The translations under genes were made by a program, and so were the position numbers. A stretch of DNA of 64,000 nucleotides from a candidate division WOR-1 bacterium RIFOXYB2_FULL_36_35 (GTDB taxonomy: Bacteria; Margulisbacteria; WOR-1; XYC2-FULL-46-14; XYC2-FULL-37-10): NCBI GenBank assembly GCA_001771505.1, contig MEUA01000005.1, forward strand, positions 10,808-74,807, in the 5' to 3' direction. Positions 2,665 to 57,944 of the stretch are shown here, in pieces. How positions within the stretch are numbered: the first letter of the stretch is position 1; the number at the start of each line of letters is the position of its first letter. The notes under the pieces were generated by a model. That model was given only the letters and a program-made list of their open reading frames with translations. It was not told where the DNA came from and did not search any database.

Positions 2665-3796
2665 TTTTATTTTTCAATATACGCTGATAAGCCTTTAGTG
2701 TAGAGGCTGCCGCCTTATCCCACGTATAATTTTTGAGGATATGTTCTTTAAGCTTTGGGTTTAAGGGGGCATTATAAGCTTTTAAAACAGCATCTCTTAT
2801 GGAAGATATATCAGAAGGATCACAATAATAAGCCATATCAAGAAAATATTCTTTCGTGTATCCACGATTGGTTATTACAACATTGCAATCAGCCAAAGCT
2901 CCTTCCAAACAAGACAGACCGGTTGTTTCTCCCCAACTCGGCAAAACAATTGTTTTTGCTCCCCAATAAATTGAAACAAGTTCTTCCTGAGTAGTTTTAT
3001 CAAGCAAAAACATTTTCCCTTTATTTTGATCACACATCTGTTTTAATCTTCTGTAATAACCTATATGAGTATTGGCAACACTGCCAATCATAATCAAAGG
3101 GATTTCGGTATCTTGAATTGCTTTTATAAGGTCATACTGATTTTTTCTGACAATATAGTTAGCAACACACAGAATATAATCTTTTACGCCAAACTTTTCA
3201 ACAAAAGAATCATCTCTTTTTGTAAAAATAAGATCTACGGCATTAGGCACTATTTCAAAATCTTTTATCTCTTCATACTTTTCTTTGATTTTTTCAAGTT
3301 CCATATAAGAATTGGGTAAAATGATATCTGCTCCCATAATTACACTCTTTTGCTGCTCAATAAATCCCATCGTCAACTGTTTCCACATAGCTTTTAATTG
3401 TCTAAAATCCATTATTGTTCTATATATACATTTTATTTTTTCCCTATTATCTTTATTGAATCTTTTTAAAATAACTCCCTTGATTCCATATGTAGCCTTG
3501 GTATCAAGTTCATTATAATCAGAATAAATAGTAGAAAGAGCAATCGGCTTATTTTGCCTTCTCGCGTTAATATATTGAAGATAGGTTTCATGCACTCTGG
3601 TAACATTAAAAAGATGGACAAGATCATATTTATCAAGATTAGGTTCAAGATCAAGAGAAATATCGACAGAAAGCTCAAGCTTCTCCAAAAATTCTTTTGT
3701 CTTTTTCATTTGGATGGTATCTCCACCAGGCGCGGAAAAAGCATCAACTCGATTTTGCATTAAGACTTTCATTTTATCTCTAATCACTCCAAGCAT
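2657..3796 (-). CDS. GT4-type (GT-B fold) glycosyltransferase
   Basis: C-terminal LPSWGETTGLSCLEGALADCNVVITNRG, the E-x7-E signature of the GT1/GT4 superfamily. Confidence 0.7.
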   Translation of the reverse strand: MLGVIRDKMKVLMQNRVDAFSAPGGDTIQMKKTKEFLEKLELSVDISLDLEPNLDKYDLVHLFNVTRVHETYLQYINARRQNKPIALSTIYSDYNELDTKATYGIKGVILKRFNKDNREKIKCIYRTIMDFRQLKAMWKQLTMGFIEQQKSVIMGADIILPNSYMELEKIKEKYEEIKDFEIVPNAVDLIFTKRDDSFVEKFGVKDYILCVANYIVRKNQYDLIKAIQDTEIPLIMIGSVANTHIGYYRRLKQMCDQNKGKMFLLDKTTQEELVSIYWGAKTIVLPSWGETTGLSCLEGALADCNVVITNRGYTKEYFLDMAYYCDPSDISSIRDAVLKAYNAPLNPKLKEHILKNYTWDKAAASTLKAYQRILKNKNE

Positions 3797-4613: not shown

Positions 4614-5959
4614 AATATTTTATCTCCCAATGAGTCATGACGTTTAGTTTCTTTATAAATTTTACCAGAAAAATAATATAAAAAGATAAAGAAAAACATT
4701 CCATCAACAAAATAATTACCATACCTAATAAGCCTTAATAGAATCAGGACAAAAATACCATTATTGATGATTGACATGCGATTATAATAATCAAAATTAT
4801 TATCTGTTTTTTTGCTACTGTTTTTTGGAAAAATAAAAAATTTAATCAAAAAATAAAGAAGAATGATTACTCCAAAAAGCCCTGTTTCTGTTAATAACCT
4901 TAAAAACATTGAATTTGCATCATTTTTTGATACAAACAAGCCCCAGCCATGCACCAAAAAATCCCTATTATTTTTAAAAATCTCAGGGCCGATAAATTGC
5001 TCAACATATTTATCAAAAGCCTCAGGATAAGTGCCAAGTCCTGTGCCAAATAATGGAGTATTTTTTAATGACTCTATGGTAACTCCAAAATTTGCATACC
5101 AAATAAAGACACTTGCATCAACCAACATATTTGATGATTGCAATAATGAAGTTACTCCGTCAACCCTATTCTTAAAATCGGGAATTTTTGAATAAAAATT
5201 AGAAGCCAATATTGAAATTAAGATCAACGCTATAGGCAAATAAAAAATCCGTTTATTTTTCAAGCTAAAAAATCGATTTCTATATAAAATAAGAATCAAC
5301 GCAAAAAACAACCCCATATAACCAGTTGATGAAAATGTCAAGACAAAAGTCGACAAAATAATTATACTTCTAAAGAAATTCATATAAATTGAACTCCGTG
5401 TAAGAATATTATTCAACGCAACAAACATTGCAGGTGACAGTATAATTGACAAAACTGAAGGCTCTTGCATAATTGAATCTATTCTTACAAGACCGGACAA
5501 TCCATAAATAACGCGCTTCCCAGGGATAAAAAAACTCCAGTCATATCCATAACGGAATTTGATTAAAAAAGAAAATTCCTGAATCAGACCTAAAAGACAA
5601 ACAAAAAAAACCACATTTAAATATATACGAAAGAGATAATCAACATCATAATCATTTATTTTAATAAGCAGATAATAAGCTGATGCAGAAAAAAGGATTC
5701 CTAGCTGCTTCAAAACAAGAAGAACGGAAAAACCGCTAAAAGAAATATTAATAATAGAAAGAAAAAAAACAACAGAAAACAAAACAAAAAAAGTTGTATT
5801 GATAATTTCTACTCTATTCAAAAAAGCAATAACTAAAAAAACAAAAAATATTATATAAAATAGATAAAAGTCAAAAGCCCCTCGCAATAGAACAAAACTC
5901 CCCAAAAACATTGTCAAAACCATAATATAATTAACAATCACCTTAAATTCTAAACGCAC
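4589..5959 (-). CDS. O-antigen ligase / Wzy-like polymerase family integral membrane protein
   Basis: About 10-12 predicted TM helices and a large loop containing PLFGTGLGTYPEAF, which resembles the Wzy_C/O-antigen ligase loop motif. Confidence 0.5.
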   Translation of the reverse strand: MRLEFKVIVNYIMVLTMFLGSFVLLRGAFDFYLFYIIFFVFLVIAFLNRVEIINTTFFVLFSVVFFLSIINISFSGFSVLLVLKQLGILFSASAYYLLIKINDYDVDYLFRIYLNVVFFVCLLGLIQEFSFLIKFRYGYDWSFFIPGKRVIYGLSGLVRIDSIMQEPSVLSIILSPAMFVALNNILTRSSIYMNFFRSIIILSTFVLTFSSTGYMGLFFALILILYRNRFFSLKNKRIFYLPIALILISILASNFYSKIPDFKNRVDGVTSLLQSSNMLVDASVFIWYANFGVTIESLKNTPLFGTGLGTYPEAFDKYVEQFIGPEIFKNNRDFLVHGWGLFVSKNDANSMFLRLLTETGLFGVIILLYFLIKFFIFPKNSSKKTDNNFDYYNRMSIINNGIFVLILLRLIRYGNYFVDGMFFFIFLYYFSGKIYKETKRHDSLGDKILCSDALQS

Positions 5960-51236: not shown

Positions 51237-52227
51237 TTACTTTTCCATTTTCCAAAGATTTTTGAGCAGAAGTCAACACTTTTAATACATCTAAACCATT
51301 TTTTCCGTTACTCAAAGGTTCGCTGCCATTTTTTATTGATTCAATAAAATGTTCACATTCTAATTTTAACGGAGTCTCTTTATCTACCTCAATTACAAAC
51401 TTTCCAGAATCCCTTAAAGTAAGTTTGTTGTTTAATTCCACTCCTTTATCAAACAGAACCAATGTCTCCTTTTCTGAAACCTCATCAAAAACAGCCATTT
51501 TTCTGCTGCCAACAACCACTGTTTGCCTTTTCTTATTAGGATCAAGCCAGCTTACATGAACATGCCCAATTTTACCGGAAGAAAATTTCATACTCAGATA
51601 AACAACATCCTCTATCCCAGACTGAATAAAAGATGATCCCAAAGCAAAAACCGTTTGTGGATGTTCATCTAACAAGTGCAAAATAATTGATATGTCATGC
51701 GGAGCCAAACTCCACATGGCATTTTCTGCTTTTCTTATTGTGCCAAGATTTAGGCGATGAGTATATATGCAATAAATATCACCCAATTCACCGGTTTTTA
51801 TCAACTGTTTCAGCTTTATAATGGCAGGATGATAAAGCATAAGGTGCCCAACCATTATTTTTTTATTCACTTTTTGCGCTAATTCAACCAGCTCCTGCGC
51901 TTCAGAAAACTTTAAAGTTATAGGTTTTTCTATGAAAACATGTTTATTTCGCTCAAGAACCTTTTTAGCAACAGAATAGTGATCAACTGCCGGAATCGCA
52001 ACAACAATGGCAGAAACCTCTTTGTCCTCAAGAATTTCATCATAATTATCTGTAAAAATCACATCAGGATATATCTTTGAAAATTTTTCTGTTTTTGATC
52101 GGTCAAAATCACAAGCATATTTAAGCTTACAATCAGGCAACAAATAAAAGTTCTTTAAAAGATTCTGCCCCCAATTCCCAAGACCTATCTGACCAATTAT
52201 CGTTTTTTTATCGGCATCTTTTTTCAT
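51223..52227 (-). CDS. Gfo/Idh/MocA oxidoreductase, WbpB-like (UDP-GlcNAcA 3-dehydrogenase type)
   Basis: [17 protein letters not shown] ... EKP. Gene context. Confidence 0.65.
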
Positions 52228-53534
52228 AATTTTATTATATTTGCCCCAGATTTTTTTGAAACGCAGCTCATAGCATTGCGAGTATCAACTATCAAGACAG
52301 CTTTATTAAGTATCAATTTATAATCATAACTTGAATGAGCAGTTGCTATGACAACGCAATCATAATCCGAAATGGTTTTTCCATCCAGCTTTAAAGAAGA
52401 ATAATCTTTTCCGCAAATCTTAATTTTAGGAATAAAGGGGTCATTATAATCAACTTTTGCCCCTTTTTTATCAAGTATTTCTATGATTTTTAAAGAAGGC
52501 GACTCTCTGTAATCATCAATATCTTTTTTATAAGCAACACCCAAAACTAAAATTTTTGAGTTTTTTAAGCTCTTTTTGTCCTGATTTAGTCCATCTTGCA
52601 CAAGCTGCACAACATAATATGGCATTTGATCATTTAACTCACCTGCTAATTCGATGAAACGAGTATTCATATGATATTCTTTAGCTTTCCAAGAAAGATA
52701 AAACGGATCAAGCGGAATACAATGCCCTCCAAGACCTGGCCCGGGATAGAAAGGCATAAAACCATAAGGCTTTGTTTTGGCGGCATCTATTACTTCCCAT
52801 ATATCTATATCCATTTTTTTACAGAGAATAGCCAACTCATTAACTAATGCAATATTTACGCTTCTAAAAATATTTTCCAAAAGCTTTTCCATCTCCGCAA
52901 CTCTTGGAGTCGACACCAAATAAGTCTCCTTGATTATTTGAGAATAAAGTTTTCTTGTAAGCTCGCTGCATACAGGTGTCACTCCACCTATAACTTTGGT
53001 AATATTTTGGGTCCTAAATTTTTTATTGCCGGGATCTACTCTTTCAGGAGAAAAAGCCAAATAAAAATCTTTACCGACCTTCAATCCTGATTTCTCTAGC
53101 TTGGGAAGGACTACTTCTTCTGTTGTCCCAGGATAAGTTGTGCTTTCTAAAACCACAAGCTGGCCTTTTTTTAGTGTTTTTGAAATGTGAAAAGTCACTG
53201 ATTTAACATAAGATATATCCGGTTGTTTGTTCTTATCAAGGGGAGTAGGAACACAGATAATAATCGCATCAACAGCCTTAAGCTCGAAAAAATCATCTGT
53301 TATTTTTATTTTCTTATTTCTAACAGCTTTAAGCAAATCTTTTGAAGAGACATCAGAAATGTAGTTTTGCCCTCTATCAAGCATCTCCCTTCTTTTTGGG
53401 TTCTGCTCTATCCCAACAACACAAAAACCAGCTTTGCAAAACTCAACAGCTAAAGGAAGACCAACATAACCCAACCCAACAATGCCTATTTTTGCTTTTT
53501 TAGATCCTATTTTATCTAGTAAAACTTTATCCAT
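52224..53534 (-). CDS. UDP-N-acetyl-D-hexosamine 6-dehydrogenase (WbpA/WecC/Ugd-family nucleotide-sugar dehydrogenase)
   Basis: KIGIVGLGYVGLPLAVEF ... catalytic GGHCIPLDP (a Cys-containing motif). Confidence 0.8.
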   Translation of the reverse strand: MDKVLLDKIGSKKAKIGIVGLGYVGLPLAVEFCKAGFCVVGIEQNPKRREMLDRGQNYISDVSSKDLLKAVRNKKIKITDDFFELKAVDAIIICVPTPLDKNKQPDISYVKSVTFHISKTLKKGQLVVLESTTYPGTTEEVVLPKLEKSGLKVGKDFYLAFSPERVDPGNKKFRTQNITKVIGGVTPVCSELTRKLYSQIIKETYLVSTPRVAEMEKLLENIFRSVNIALVNELAILCKKMDIDIWEVIDAAKTKPYGFMPFYPGPGLGGHCIPLDPFYLSWKAKEYHMNTRFIELAGELNDQMPYYVVQLVQDGLNQDKKSLKNSKILVLGVAYKKDIDDYRESPSLKIIEILDKKGAKVDYNDPFIPKIKICGKDYSSLKLDGKTISDYDCVVIATAHSSYDYKLILNKAVLIVDTRNAMSCVSKKSGANIIKL

Positions 53535-53604
53535 TTTTAGATACTAAAAGATTTATTTATCGCCTATATATAACTTAAAATTAAGTATACCACTTACGAA
53601 AATT

Positions 53605-53641
53605 TTGTCTATAACTAATCAAGACCAGTCAACACCAGTCA
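53605..53641. repeat. ~37-nt direct repeat copy A, built from three 10-bp iterons (TGACTGGTNT-like)
   Basis: ttgtctataactaatcaagaccagtcaacaccagtca. Near-identical to 54759-54795. It overlaps the stop codon of the FAD oxidoreductase gene and sits ~70 nt upstream of the next gene start. Confidence 0.7.
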
Positions 53642-54748
53642 CAAGGAGATTATGCCGCCAACATGCTTCCCAATTGCCAAACAAGCTGTTAACCCTGGAG
53701 ATTCAATTCCTATCAAATTTACAAAGCCAGGAAACCCATTTTCAGTCTCCTCTTTTATCATAAAATCTCTAACCCCATCATTTAATCCTTGTAATTTTGG
53801 TCTCATTCCGGATGTATCCGGCATAAGTTGTTCCTCTCTTAAAAATGGCAAATAATGCTTTGCGGCTTTATAAAAAGCCTCTCTTTTACTGGAATCAACA
53901 TCATAATAAATATGATCAACATAAGTTGCATCAGGACCCAATTTTACACATCCTTCAAGATCAAGTGTCGCATGAACACCAAGCCCATATCCTTTTTCAT
54001 GAGGAACCGGATATACAAGATGATGCAGCATACCCGAGGCTCTAGATATCGAAAAATAGTCGCCTTTGCAATAATGGAGCCTGTACCCAAGCAAATCAAC
54101 ATCAAATCCCGTAATTTTAGCTATTTTATCCGAATAAAGACCCGCGGCATTCACAACTATTTCTGAAAGAATTTTTTCTCCTCTTAAAGTTTCAATAATA
54201 TATCCCTCAAAAGTTTTTACAATCTTTACAACCTCATTCTCAAAGGCAAACATTGTCCCATTATTTTGAGCTTCTTCATGCAAAATTTTCATTAAACCAT
54301 GAGAATCAATTATTCCAGTGGTAGAAGAAAATACGCCATTTAACGCGTAAACTTGGGGCTCTATCTTAAAGATTTCATCTTTGGTTAAAAGTGTAAGACC
54401 TGGAACACCAATTGAAGTTGATTTTTCATAAATAGATCTTATTTGTATTGCCTCTTGTTCATTTGTAGAAACTATAATTTTACCGCAATTTTTATGTCTA
54501 ATTCCTTTTAATTTACAAAACTCGTATAAGAGTTTATTGCCGAAAAGGCAAAGATTACTCTTTAAGGAATTTTTGGGATAATAAATACCAGCATGGATAA
54601 CCTCACTATTACGGCTGCTTATTTCCTGACCAAAATGCGCATTTTTTTCAAAAACAACAATATCTCCGCATATTTTCTCTGACAGTTCTCTTGCAATTGC
54701 AAGCCCAACAACTCCCGCACCAATTATTGAAACTTTAATTTTATCCAT
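53639..54748 (-). CDS. FAD-dependent oxidoreductase (DAO/LhgO-like)
   Basis: KVSIIGAGVVGLAIAREL (GxGxxG dinucleotide fold). Length 369 aa. Confidence 0.7.
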   Translation of the reverse strand: MDKIKVSIIGAGVVGLAIARELSEKICGDIVVFEKNAHFGQEISSRNSEVIHAGIYYPKNSLKSNLCLFGNKLLYEFCKLKGIRHKNCGKIIVSTNEQEAIQIRSIYEKSTSIGVPGLTLLTKDEIFKIEPQVYALNGVFSSTTGIIDSHGLMKILHEEAQNNGTMFAFENEVVKIVKTFEGYIIETLRGEKILSEIVVNAAGLYSDKIAKITGFDVDLLGYRLHYCKGDYFSISRASGMLHHLVYPVPHEKGYGLGVHATLDLEGCVKLGPDATYVDHIYYDVDSSKREAFYKAAKHYLPFLREEQLMPDTSGMRPKLQGLNDGVRDFMIKEETENGFPGFVNLIGIESPGLTACLAIGKHVGGIISL

Positions 54749-54758
54749 TTAAATTTTT

Positions 54759-54795
54759 TTGTCTACAACTAATCAAGACCAGTCAAAATTAGTCA
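54759..54795. repeat. ~37-nt direct repeat copy B (three 10-bp iterons)
   Basis: ttgtctacaactaatcaagaccagtcaaaattagtca. It lies in the 55-nt intergenic gap immediately upstream of the FAD oxidoreductase start codon. Confidence 0.7.
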
Positions 54796-54803
54796 TATCT
54801 TCT

Positions 54804-56369
54804 CTAATATTTCACTTTTTCCGTTACATTTATAAATTTATAAGGCCTAAAATAACTTGAAAAATAGCTTTTATCTTCCAATATCTGGAAATTACCTCCA
54901 AAATACCAATTAAATATTAGACGAAAAGTATTCACAGGACTTATGCTCGTATTTACAAACTCCACATCTGGCAAATAGTATGCATTTAAAATACGCATTT
55001 GACCTTTTAAGTTAGCATCGGAAAAGAGTTTTCCCATATGTTTTGGCTTATTTCTTATATCCGTAGGTTTGTTTTTTATATCCTGTTCAAATAAATAACC
55101 GGCGCCATGGTCACCCTGTATTATAATAATAGGTTTTACTTTTGACTTTGATAACAAAGAGTCAACCAACTGCATCACCTTTTTATTGATAAATCGAAGC
55201 TGAGGAACATATAAACTGTGATCAAACCACCCAGCAACCCCTTTAGGCAACTTTAACTTTGAACCATTCGAATTAAAAATAAAAGGAGGATGAGGGGATA
55301 ATATATGGGCAAATACAAATGTTGGATTTTTATTATTTGAAACCTCTTCTATCTCTTTAAACTGATCAATGACCCTACACCTTAAAACCGGAAAAGTAAT
55401 CTGTATGCTAAAAGGATGAAATATGCTACTTTCTAATAAAAGCATATTAAATTCATCAAGTAAGATCTTATCCATGAAAGAAGCTGTACTCGGAGTTGAA
55501 GAAGTAGCCTTCCACCACGAACCTATATTTATAATTTCATATCCGTTTTGTGCAAAAGTTTTTTCCACGACAGCATTTTTCATCATCTCTTGTAAATACG
55601 AAATATCATTAGATTCTTGCCCCATTATCCTTCCAACAAAATCCAAGTAAGTCATATTTAAAGACGAGGAAAGAGAGGCTAGAGTAAAAGCATAATTACT
55701 AAAACTTTTATCCGCGACATAAAAACCTCTTTTTTTTAAGGAGTTTGTAAAACTCGAATTATCATAACCAAATAAACCTTTTAAAACACTGTCAGACGAA
55801 TAAGCATCAAGAATTATATAATAAACATCTCTTTTCTTTGATTTTTCAGAAAAAATAAAACCCAAAGAATTCATCTTTTTAACACTTTTTAGGGCATTAA
55901 CATCAACCCTTTTATGAATATTATTTAATTTATAAGACAAAAAGTTAAACACTAATCCCAAAACCAAAACAAAAGCAACTACATTAAAAAAATAATTAAT
56001 CTTCTCCAATTGCTTATTTCTCCTAAAATAAATCATCAACGCAACAAACAAGCAAACTAGCACAAAAACCCAAAATGCCAATAAAAACCTTTCCCTAATA
56101 AATATATATTCAATTAAAAGATTTGAAAATAAAAAACAAAAACTCCCGTATAAAAAAATCCATAAAAAGAGAACAGAAGAAATTACAGAAGCTAGGTTTA
56201 AGTTCCTTAAAACAATAAATAAAACAACCCATAACAGAAAATAGATAAATATAAAAAATAATAATTTTGGAAAAACATCAAAAAAACCAAGTTCACCTAA
56301 ATTATTAAAAAACAAAAACAGAACAGGATATACGGCAAAAACAAAAGGATATATTATGATTTTTTTCAT
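54804..56369 (-). CDS. membrane-anchored sulfatase / alkaline-phosphatase-superfamily protein (LtaS / phosphoethanolamine- or phosphoglycerol-transferase-like)
   Basis: Five N-terminal TM helices. C-terminal domain with YYIILDAYSSD ... IIIIQGDHGAG (the GDHG motif of the sulfatase family). Confidence 0.6.
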   Translation of the reverse strand: MKKIIIYPFVFAVYPVLFLFFNNLGELGFFDVFPKLLFFIFIYFLLWVVLFIVLRNLNLASVISSVLFLWIFLYGSFCFLFSNLLIEYIFIRERFLLAFWVFVLVCLFVALMIYFRRNKQLEKINYFFNVVAFVLVLGLVFNFLSYKLNNIHKRVDVNALKSVKKMNSLGFIFSEKSKKRDVYYIILDAYSSDSVLKGLFGYDNSSFTNSLKKRGFYVADKSFSNYAFTLASLSSSLNMTYLDFVGRIMGQESNDISYLQEMMKNAVVEKTFAQNGYEIINIGSWWKATSSTPSTASFMDKILLDEFNMLLLESSIFHPFSIQITFPVLRCRVIDQFKEIEEVSNNKNPTFVFAHILSPHPPFIFNSNGSKLKLPKGVAGWFDHSLYVPQLRFINKKVMQLVDSLLSKSKVKPIIIIQGDHGAGYLFEQDIKNKPTDIRNKPKHMGKLFSDANLKGQMRILNAYYLPDVEFVNTSISPVNTFRLIFNWYFGGNFQILEDKSYFSSYFRPYKFINVTEKVKY

Positions 56370-57739
56370 TTTTTCGCTCTCATAAGATATAGTGTTCTAT
56401 GAGAACCGGGTATTTCAACCGTTTTCTCAGTAATAAATTTTTTTTCAAATGTCGCCTTAAAATTTTCAGAATTATAATGAGGAAATATATCCTTTCTTGA
56501 ATTGAAAAGTTTCTGTGCCATAGAATCCTCTTTTTCCACAAATTCTATTATAAGCCAATTACAAATTTTGCTAAAAAAATCGGCAATCTTTATAAAAGGG
56601 ATATTGCAACTTATCGCTAAATGATGAATCAACGCCAAAGCCATAACCAAATCAGCAGGTCCCCTCTTTATTAAAGAATCTCTCTCTAAATTTGCCCAAC
56701 CTAAAGAGGGAGTAGGATTTAACAAATCCAAAAACAATGGCAATATCTTTTCAAACTTAGATTTATTGTAAATATCTTCAATACAAAAAAAATCATTGTC
56801 AAAGGCTATTGTTTCTATGTTTTTACTGGCTGCTATTTCAGAAAAACCACCTGTATTACAACCCAAATCCCAAACATTAAAAGGCTTCAGAATATCAATA
56901 AAATCTAAAATTACACTTTTTTTAAATTCAAAAGAGTGTGGAGAATAATTATTACTAACATAGTAATCTTTCCAATGACTATGTTTTTTGTTTAACTTTA
57001 ATTTTTCAACAACCGATTGAAGATTATCTATAAGCGCGTAAAAATGGGTTTTACTAAAAAACACCTTCTTTGAAAATATTCTTCTCTCCTCATATTTTTT
57101 TTGAGCTTTTGAATGCAAATGAATATGAATAAAAATACCAGGATTCAACCAACTTGTCTTTGGCAAAACAGAGCTAACCAAATCAAGGGGAATCCCATTT
57201 ATAAAAACCTTAAAAAGCTGAGAAAGCCTATAATCCTTAAAAGCCATTAACACTAAAGGCCCTAAAAAATGTTCGCAAAACTGCTTATACGCAATCCAAG
57301 GTTCACCTTCATCGTATTTTTCAAAAGATAGAGTATCTATTAATTTAGGATTCCCCTTCACAAACTGAATATTAAAAGCGCTAGCATCTTTAAGCGTCAT
57401 ATCAAAATCAAGCGCTGTTTTTTGTAAATTTAAAGTGAGCAATGCAGCATCTTTTAGTTGTCCAAAACACCACTCATATGGATAAGAAATAAAAGAAATA
57501 CGTTCCGGTTTAATTATCTTATATGCTATATTTGAATTTTGAGCTTCAACTGAAACTTCTTTGTGAGAAATTAGAGTGTTTGCCTCCACAAGCTTATCAT
57601 AAAGCCCGCAGCGCATAAACATTTCATAATTATTTTTATAGGTAAAATTTATCTGTCTATAAATCTCTCCGTCTTTACTGAAAACAAAACCTGAAGGGTC
57701 TTTAAAGGAACCACCTATTAACGAACTATCACTTTGCAT
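56366..57739 (-). CDS. hypothetical 457-aa protein with C-terminal SAM-methyltransferase-like motif
   Basis: VWDLGCNTGGFSEIAASKN resembles MTase motif I. The N-terminal ~280 aa are unrecognised. Confidence 0.35.
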   Translation of the reverse strand: MQSDSSLIGGSFKDPSGFVFSKDGEIYRQINFTYKNNYEMFMRCGLYDKLVEANTLISHKEVSVEAQNSNIAYKIIKPERISFISYPYEWCFGQLKDAALLTLNLQKTALDFDMTLKDASAFNIQFVKGNPKLIDTLSFEKYDEGEPWIAYKQFCEHFLGPLVLMAFKDYRLSQLFKVFINGIPLDLVSSVLPKTSWLNPGIFIHIHLHSKAQKKYEERRIFSKKVFFSKTHFYALIDNLQSVVEKLKLNKKHSHWKDYYVSNNYSPHSFEFKKSVILDFIDILKPFNVWDLGCNTGGFSEIAASKNIETIAFDNDFFCIEDIYNKSKFEKILPLFLDLLNPTPSLGWANLERDSLIKRGPADLVMALALIHHLAISCNIPFIKIADFFSKICNWLIIEFVEKEDSMAQKLFNSRKDIFPHYNSENFKATFEKKFITEKTVEIPGSHRTLYLMRAKK

Positions 57740-57944
57740 CTTTTTTTTCTTTAAAACGGGGGATTTTTTTTGATGCTTTAGAGATAAAAACTTTTATAGA
57801 ATAAATAGAGCCTATAAAAAAAGCTAGTAATATTTGAAAAATATAGCTCCCTGCTCCTGGATCAAGATAAGCAAAAGCTTGATTGGAAAATGAAGAACAA
57901 AAAAATAAAACTAAACAAAAAAAACAACTTGTATAAAGAAACAT
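57729..57944 (-). CDS. small (71 aa) hydrophobic protein, possible single-pass membrane peptide
   Basis: The ORF fits the 17-nt gap after the Wzz-like gene. It has a strongly hydrophobic core, LAFFIGSIYSIKVFI. No homology recognised. Confidence 0.3.
   Translation of the reverse strand: MFLYTSCFFCLVLFFCSSFSNQAFAYLDPGAGSYIFQILLAFFIGSIYSIKVFISKASKKIPRFKEKKDAK

Follow-up and report, generated by a model that had tools for sequence, protein, structure and literature searches.

Phased TGAC-box repeats bracketing an oxidoreductase gene in a Saganbacteria surface-glycan cluster: probable lineage-specific regulatory DNA rather than a gene cassette

Small winged-helix proteins of the excisionase family bind head-to-tail on the lambda Xis sites X1-X1.5-X2, three tandem sites spaced about one turn apart. 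JUMPstart/ops acts via an 8-nt sequence, ops (GGCGGTAG), within the transcribed leader. In cyanobacteria, the RpaB site HLR1 consists of paired imperfect 8-bp direct repeats 2 nt apart, which yields a 10-bp phase; sites centred ~50 nt 5' of the transcription start activate, and those near the start repress (PMC6525291; bioRxiv 10.1101/443713). We analyzed a 64-kb stretch of DNA (contig MEUA01000005.1, positions 10,808 to 74,807; the window hereafter) from candidate division WOR-1 bacterium RIFOXYB2_FULL_36_35, a member of the Saganbacteria (WOR-1), a sibling lineage of Cyanobacteria (PMC6349859). A short direct repeat, with copies named A and B herein, lies on both sides of a gene for a flavin adenine dinucleotide (FAD)-dependent oxidoreductase in a surface-glycan cluster. 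We read this element as lineage-specific regulatory DNA of an ordinary kind and not a gene cassette or switch. Elements of this kind are familiar; what is new is an instance from an uncultivated phylum.

A repeat search of the window identified the pair as 39-nt direct repeats that are 35/39 identical (90%) with a spacing of 1154 nt (Table 1). The copies share 20 consecutive identical bases and 28 of 29 positions across the core, and the 28-nt core TTGTCTAYAACTAATCAAGACCAGTCAA occurs at exactly two sites in the window with up to three mismatches allowed (0 in 100 shuffles). Read in the coding direction, each copy consists of three 10-bp units followed by TAGACAAAA, and the 10-nt period of copy A was picked up by Tandem Repeats Finder. 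The original prediction had described a repeat pair built from tandem 10-bp units at this place and had called it the only conspicuous intergenic repeat; repeat search, period detection, and unit reading confirm the former. The spaced pattern TGAC-N6-TGAC-N6-TGAT was found only at the two copies (0 expected in the window). Since the degenerate 10-mer TGAYTRRTNT by itself is not enriched (7 found versus 11 expected), the signal is the phased array and not the single unit. No further repeat copy was found in the 10 kb past the left end of the window.

Window genes are co-directional on the minus strand and almost gapless. In the direction of transcription the order is murE, wza, wzz, open reading frames (ORFs) of 71, 457, and 521 aa, copy B, the oxidoreductase, copy A, a nucleoside diphosphate (NDP)-sugar dehydrogenase, and further sugar-nucleotide genes. 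The copies fall in the largest (A, 104 nt) and third largest (B, 55 nt) intergenic gaps of the co-directional cluster. The oxidoreductase stop codon is the first TGA of copy A, and copy B lies 8 nt 3' of the stop of the 521-aa gene and ends 8 nt ahead of the oxidoreductase ATG.

A consensus scan placed a sigma-70-type promoter that begins within copy A, TAGACA-N16-TATACT with TG at the extended -10, matching 10 of 12 consensus positions. Its -35, its spacer within the 16–18-nt range, its TGn, and its TAnnnT are those of a sigma-70 extended -10 promoter. Other pairings within the array, with TTGACT or TTGATT as the -35, had no acceptable -10 on reading of the sequence. By our own count from the -10, the TGAC boxes are centred about -45, -55, and -60 from the predicted start. 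These features support an operator/promoter reading in which copy A would be the upstream half of an internal promoter. Our main explanation, to which we assign a probability of roughly 55%, is that copy A is half of a functional internal promoter and that copy B is a paralog bordering a block of foreign DNA. The module would then consist of two or three TGAC-type boxes at 10-bp spacing, directly 5' of the -35 TAGACA and the extended -10 TGgTATACT. The boxes would bind a head-to-tail, helically phased oligomer of a transcription factor, candidates being an OmpR/PhoB/RpaB-type regulator or a 74-aa excisionase-family HTH_17 protein, and the bound oligomer may activate or gate transcription of the glycan genes. 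Such a promoter would lie between a conserved block for export (murE-wza-wzz-oxidoreductase) and the genes for glycan synthesis, which vary.

Further evidence comes from related loci. The locus of WOR-1 RIFOXYB2_FULL_37_13 (L143; L118 and L088 are from the same population) has GT2, murE, wza, wzz, and oxidoreductase genes in the same order as the window, with 66–85% protein identity and unrelated genes downstream. Its oxidoreductase, like that of L118, is 84% identical in amino acid sequence to the one in the window, begins 11 nt after wzz in L143, and has no repeat copy upstream there. At the oxidoreductase stop, both L143 and L118 open TGACTGGTTT TGACTGGTCT TGATTAG(C/T)TG TAGACAAAA, followed by a 13-nt spacer and TGGTATACT. 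Nucleotide homology between the window and L143 runs from codon 5 of the oxidoreductase through the last base of the -10 (53584) and then ends. Copy A matches the orthologous RIFOXYB2_FULL_37_13 element at 36 of 39 positions, whereas identity at 4-fold sites in the gene next to it is 63% (P = 2.7e-5). By our own count against this nearest species, the spacer is identical at 7 of 13 positions and the -10 at 6 of 6. Conserved boxes, -35, and -10 around a drifted spacer make a promoter-like footprint, with sites for protein binding upstream.

Six other Saganbacteria/Margulisbacteria loci have the same layout: two or three TGAC boxes in 10-bp phase, followed by a -35 and a -10. In five of the six, the module separates the oxidoreductase from the operon that follows, and in four it precedes a small HTH_17 gene. 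Across seven aligned regions the invariant columns are TGA in box 1, TGAC in box 2 with a T three columns upstream, TnGACA, and TAnAnT, all at fixed distances. Five of these loci (L235, L236, L238, L239, and L244) keep the TGA/TTGAC/TnGACA/TAnAnT spacing while the remaining sequence has diverged, and the phase of the boxes is kept in L143, L235, L238, L239, and L244. In L244 the NDP-sugar dehydrogenase and GFO genes that follow are the same genes as those 3' of copy A in the window. The element is absent from the junction after the oxidoreductase in L236 (directly after the gene), L237, and L240. The distance from the -10 to the ATG is only 6–10 nt in L235 (5168), L236 (8574), L144 (4028), L244 (5222), and L238 (1747), which suggests that leaderless or short-leader mRNAs are common in the lineage. 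A helical-phase array for a protein, as proposed in the original prediction, is thus supported by direct repeats at 10-bp phase 5' of the -35, with the phase kept in relatives. Its proposal of an internal promoter ahead of the WbpA-like gene likewise gains support from the extended -10 after copy A and from spacing and position that are conserved above the neutral rate.

No match to the exact 20-mer was found in GTDB representative genomes, because the species representative lacks the sequence. On a metagenome collection, the degenerate three-unit pattern was too permissive: among the matches listed, ~118 were simple tandem repeats and the only true relatives were L088 and L118. On viral contigs the same pattern returned tandem-repeat noise only.

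Copy B is best understood from the genes that surround it. The oxidoreductase adjoins wzz in L143, L144, L239, and L244 and is the best-conserved protein of the block, so it is ancestral and not a cassette. The 71-, 457-, and 521-aa genes are specific to the species of the window among the relatives compared. The GC content of this block is 0.26–0.31, versus 0.35–0.38 in its flanks, and no Pfam or NCBIfam match was found for the block. The 71-aa ORF after wzz encodes a small hydrophobic membrane protein and not a helix-turn-helix protein; the 457-aa protein has an S-adenosylmethionine-methyltransferase-like motif (VWDLGCNTGG); and the 521-aa protein, also annotated in candidate division WOR-1 bacterium RIFOXYA2_FULL_36_21, has an N-terminal transmembrane domain and a sulfatase-like domain (PF00884 in homologs). 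On these comparisons the inserted DNA is the three-gene block and not the oxidoreductase, and the block is probably a horizontally acquired glycan-decoration module. Its insertion between wzz and the oxidoreductase would make the bracketing of the oxidoreductase by repeats a by-product.

Copy B borders this block on its 3' side and would represent the box-plus-(-35) part of the module. It is identical to copy A at 35 of 39 positions, to L143 at 36, and to L118 at 37 (the last by our own count, which also puts A and B two positions each from the L118 version and four from each other). Because A and B are equally near the L118 version, copy B is a paralog of the clade's own promoter module. Either the block brought it along from a close relative, or it was copied from A at insertion; its source could not be traced via homologs of the 521-aa protein, which are too distant (best ≤38% identical). 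Every invariant promoter column is kept in copy B, including a TAAAAT at the exact register of the family. There is no in-frame start codon between this hexamer and the GxGxxG motif of the oxidoreductase, whose ATG is at 54746–54748. Since the only register-matched -10 is 3' of the ATG, copy B is not usable for a translatable oxidoreductase mRNA, and since MDKI is a common N-terminus in homologs, the TAAAAT may be coincidental. Copy B may be inert or a retained binding site. Re-initiation ahead of the oxidoreductase, one of the roles first proposed for the repeats, is therefore not supported, the one -10-like hexamer of copy B being within coding sequence. Cassette-like insertion of the oxidoreductase, another, is not supported either, given the ancestral position of the gene and relatives that have the downstream copy only.

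Several observations weigh against the preferred explanation of a promoter at copy A and a paralogous copy B. At copy A, both promoter and start site are predicted; for copy B, the origin is read from position and composition only; and the comparison includes ~6 independent relatives, in which shared descent could explain a common promoter. With TAnAnT at register, copy B could be a complete, active promoter that fires into the oxidoreductase ORF. By tblastn, no HTH_17 or MarR regulator was found in the 64-kb window, in 13 kb of L143, or in 6 kb of L235, with the 10 kb to the left of the window not searched. In addition, all four differences between A and B are compatible with an RNA hairpin, an alternative considered below.

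Both copies could instead be active operator arrays for one regulator, cooperating by looping over 1154 bp or by a roadblock, so that the oxidoreductase is tuned or insulated separately. Retention of each invariant promoter column by copy B argues for this, as does a 29-nt core only one position from that of A and a total of 2/39 differences from the L118 copy, where a neutral copy as old as the species split would be expected to differ more. The similarity may only reflect recent copying, however, relatives manage with one copy, and the window has no HTH_17 or MarR gene, so we regard two cooperating operators as unlikely. Less likely again is that the element acts in mRNA, as an 11-bp hairpin (UGACUGGU.../...AUUAGUUAUAG) that serves as an intercistronic processing or stability signal after the 521-aa and oxidoreductase genes. 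The same 11-pair stem, with several G-U pairs, can form in both copies, and the A/B differences together with the differing 5' flanks preserve pairing (two G-U pairs become A-U, one U-A becomes U-G, and one pair is added), with G-U pairs possible only on the transcribed strand. The fold energies are no better than those of shuffled sequences (z = -0.38 and -1.02), however, and a near-palindromic unit (ACTAGT-like) produces such pairing automatically. The fold of the L118 version is different, a T-to-C change in L143 disrupts a stem pair, and L235, L238, and L239 have no comparable hairpin (z = -0.19 to +1.22). The best Rfam scores were 16–21 bits against gathering thresholds of 78–88, none of them on the repeats. 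A terminator scan found no terminator-like site on either repeat, and the hairpin is not a terminator because it has no T-tract. The hairpin reading is consequently a weak one.

Recombination between the repeats would make the oxidoreductase a variable gene, deleted or reinstated by homologous or slipped exchange, with glycan modification differing within the population. Direct-orientation repeats with 20 identical bases and a 28/29 core on both sides of a single 1.1-kb gene are what such a process would use. Nonetheless, 28 nt is a poor RecA substrate. The same locus is found, identical, in many Rifle groundwater metagenome assemblies, and the repeats are identical in all population contigs. 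Among the contigs examined from many samples, 24 have the oxidoreductase, 23 the 521-aa gene, and 24 the dehydrogenase, in one gene order throughout. In none of them is the 521-aa gene joined directly to the dehydrogenase, a test of limited power in that consensus assemblies would hide rare variants. Variable or on/off presence, as originally proposed, is accordingly at odds with the 23–24 population contigs that have either flanking gene, all of which keep the oxidoreductase, and we consider exchange between the repeats very unlikely. L005 and L006 look like upstream variants but differ by indel errors only. One low-coverage contig (L003/L224; ENA ERZ4902888 NODE_1157, coverage 2.85) matches the window without differences as far as 53050, a position within the NDP-sugar dehydrogenase gene; beyond this breakpoint it has thioredoxin and Asn/Asp-tRNA synthetase genes that occur neither in the window nor in the adjoining 10 kb. 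Either the contig is chimeric, or it comes from a strain without the whole variable glycan region. Site-specific recombination, with the repeats as attL/attR or integron attC-like sites left by a cassette insertion of the oxidoreductase, is highly improbable. It would fit the bracketing of exactly one gene and a modest inverted-repeat potential, but the window genes examined for family membership include no integrase or recombinase, and the oxidoreductase is ancestral at its position, with relatives that have one element at a fixed place. Integron attC sites are imperfect palindromes of 57–141 nt with R''/R' boxes (RYYYAAC ... GTTRRRY); at 39 nt the element is shorter, and neither its GTTATAG nor its GTTGTAG conforms to the R' box GTTRRRY. 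Plasmid or replicon iterons were also considered and rejected: the element is inside a chromosomal glycan operon with glycan, cell-wall, and export genes as neighbors and no rep gene among them.

If copy A is a promoter with upstream boxes, the HTH_17 family is a candidate source of its regulator. Genes for 63–81-aa excisionase-family HTH_17 proteins are found behind box-bearing promoters in L144 (4028–4219), L236 (8574–8795), L238 (1747–1992), and L244 (5222–5443), the last of which lacked a gene call. TGAC boxes are upstream of all four of these HTH_17 genes. A search recovered ~394 HTH_17 relatives with E ≤ 1e-6; of the 120 listed, most are 70–95% identical. The family is highly conserved across the phylum and accompanies wza/wzz/oxidoreductase genes; in RIFOXYA12_FULL_52_29 the HTH_17 and oxidoreductase genes have consecutive locus tags. 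The link between HTH_17 and the boxes is an association of genes and motifs and is circumstantial. A bolder proposal, which we think improbable, is that the TGAC array is the operator of the 74-aa HTH_17 protein found with the oxidoreductase in many Saganbacteria/Margulisbacteria, the two together making a phylum-wide and undescribed master switch for surface-glycan loci. If true, HTH_17 would act in trans on both arrays bracketing the oxidoreductase and would separate control of a glycan-modifying step from that of the other steps.

The oxidoreductase is a conserved member of the Saganbacteria wza-wzz block. Downstream of the NDP-sugar dehydrogenase are GFO/MocA, hexapeptide acetyltransferase, and DegT aminotransferase genes. 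No Shine-Dalgarno sequence is recognizable for the oxidoreductase (54749–54756) or the NDP-sugar dehydrogenase (53535–53583), both of which have A/T-rich leaders; most other genes that follow a gap in the cluster carry one (GGAGG, AAGGAG). The glycan cluster runs at least 10 kb past the left end of the window (L241–L243, 10695–20687, beyond window position 1), with genes for a flippase, four radical-SAM proteins (three with a B12-binding domain), GT2, and PMT_2, and the co-directional cluster is therefore >70 kb. Other genes occur at the oxidoreductase junction in relatives. In L237, another Saganbacteria genome, TCCAAT-rich short repeats (aatgtccaatttccaatgtctaatgtccaat and similar; about 3440–3570 and 5117–5240) flank a 23S_rRNA_IVP-family gene and follow the oxidoreductase. 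AbiEii-type toxin genes are by or right after the oxidoreductase in three Saganbacteria loci: L244 (4394–5038), L245 (4352–4996 and 6304–6972), and L236 (1884–2561). The junction 3' of the oxidoreductase thus appears to be an insertion hotspot.

Table 1. Features of the repeat-bracketed region (window positions, in order of transcription) and corresponding promoter modules in related loci
Feature	Position	Strand	Sequence	Remarks
Three-gene block between wzz and oxidoreductase	54804..57944	-		71-aa, 457-aa, and 521-aa genes
Copy B	54757..54795	-	TGACTAATTT (54786-54795), TGACTGGTCT (54776-54785), TGATTAGTTG (54766-54775), then TAGACAAAA	
-10-like hexamer	54738-54743	-	TAAAAT	16 nt after TAGACA of copy B (-35-like, 54760-54765); codons 2-4 of oxidoreductase (ATG GAT AAA ATT)
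FAD-dependent oxidoreductase, 369 aa	53639..54748	-		Pfam DAO; LhgO / glycerol-3-phosphate-oxidase-like, below equivalog cut-offs
Copy A	53603..53641	-	TGACTGGTGT (53632-53641), TGACTGGTCT (53622-53631), TGATTAGTTA (53612-53621), then TAGACAAAA	
Predicted sigma-70-type promoter	53584..53611	-	-35 TAGACA (53606-53611), N16, TGg (53590-53592), -10 TATACT (53584-53589)	
NDP-sugar dehydrogenase (WbpA/TviB/UDP-ManNAc-DH-like)	52224..53534	-		First gene 3' of predicted copy A promoter
L235 module			TGATTAGTAT TGACAAGTTT TAGCAAGCTC TGGACA-N16-TATAAT	Then SIS gene
L238 module			TGACACCTTT TGACACCAAT AAATACCCCT TGACA...TAGAAT	Then HTH_17 gene
L239 module			...TTGACTAAAT AGAATACCCC TTGACA-N16-TGcTATAAT	Then MarR-like gene
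L236 module				5' of HTH_17 gene
L244 module			TGACTAATAA TGACTAGAAT ATAATGCCAC TTGACA-N17-TATGAT	Then HTH_17, NDP-sugar dehydrogenase, and GFO genes

We know of no experimental work on transcription signals in Saganbacteria (WOR-1). For this lineage the locus yields a comparatively supported promoter architecture, in which phased TGAC boxes precede a -35 and an extended -10 and the start is often leaderless. HTH_17 is suggested as a candidate regulator family for the very large surface-glycan clusters of Saganbacteria. The locus also illustrates how a glycan cluster may grow: foreign DNA enters next to wzz, ahead of a conserved oxidoreductase gene, and leaves the promoter module in duplicate. 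For annotation this means that a gene between repeats is not necessarily mobile. The scope is narrow, covering one subclade and a mechanism of a familiar kind.

Compared with described systems, the element resembles JUMPstart/ops-RfaH of Enterobacteria and the UpxY 5' leaders of Bacteroides in being a short non-coding module at the boundary where conserved export genes give way to serotype-variable biosynthesis genes, fixed while the downstream genes vary between species. Unlike JUMPstart/ops, GGCGGTAG was not seen in the element or leader, and the conserved part lies 5' of the -10 and would therefore be untranscribed from the copy A promoter. Comparison with the Xis array is relevant because four of four HTH_17 genes are driven by such predicted promoters: the box-bearing promoters in L144, L236, L238, and L244 precede a gene of the excisionase family, which fits autoregulation. 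The window element differs in that it is at a promoter without an integrase, and is thus not a recombination site, and in that the window has no HTH_17 gene. As a sequence motif HLR1 was rejected, with the units TTGACTGG and TTGATTAG each matching 5 of 8 positions of (G/T)TTACA(T/A)(T/A)-N2-(G/T)TTACA(T/A)(T/A). The core is TGAC(T/A) in the window versus TTACA in HLR1, and there are three or four units versus two. In architecture the two are alike: the window element has 8-bp TGACWRRT-type units 2 nt apart, with the conserved pair centred near -55.

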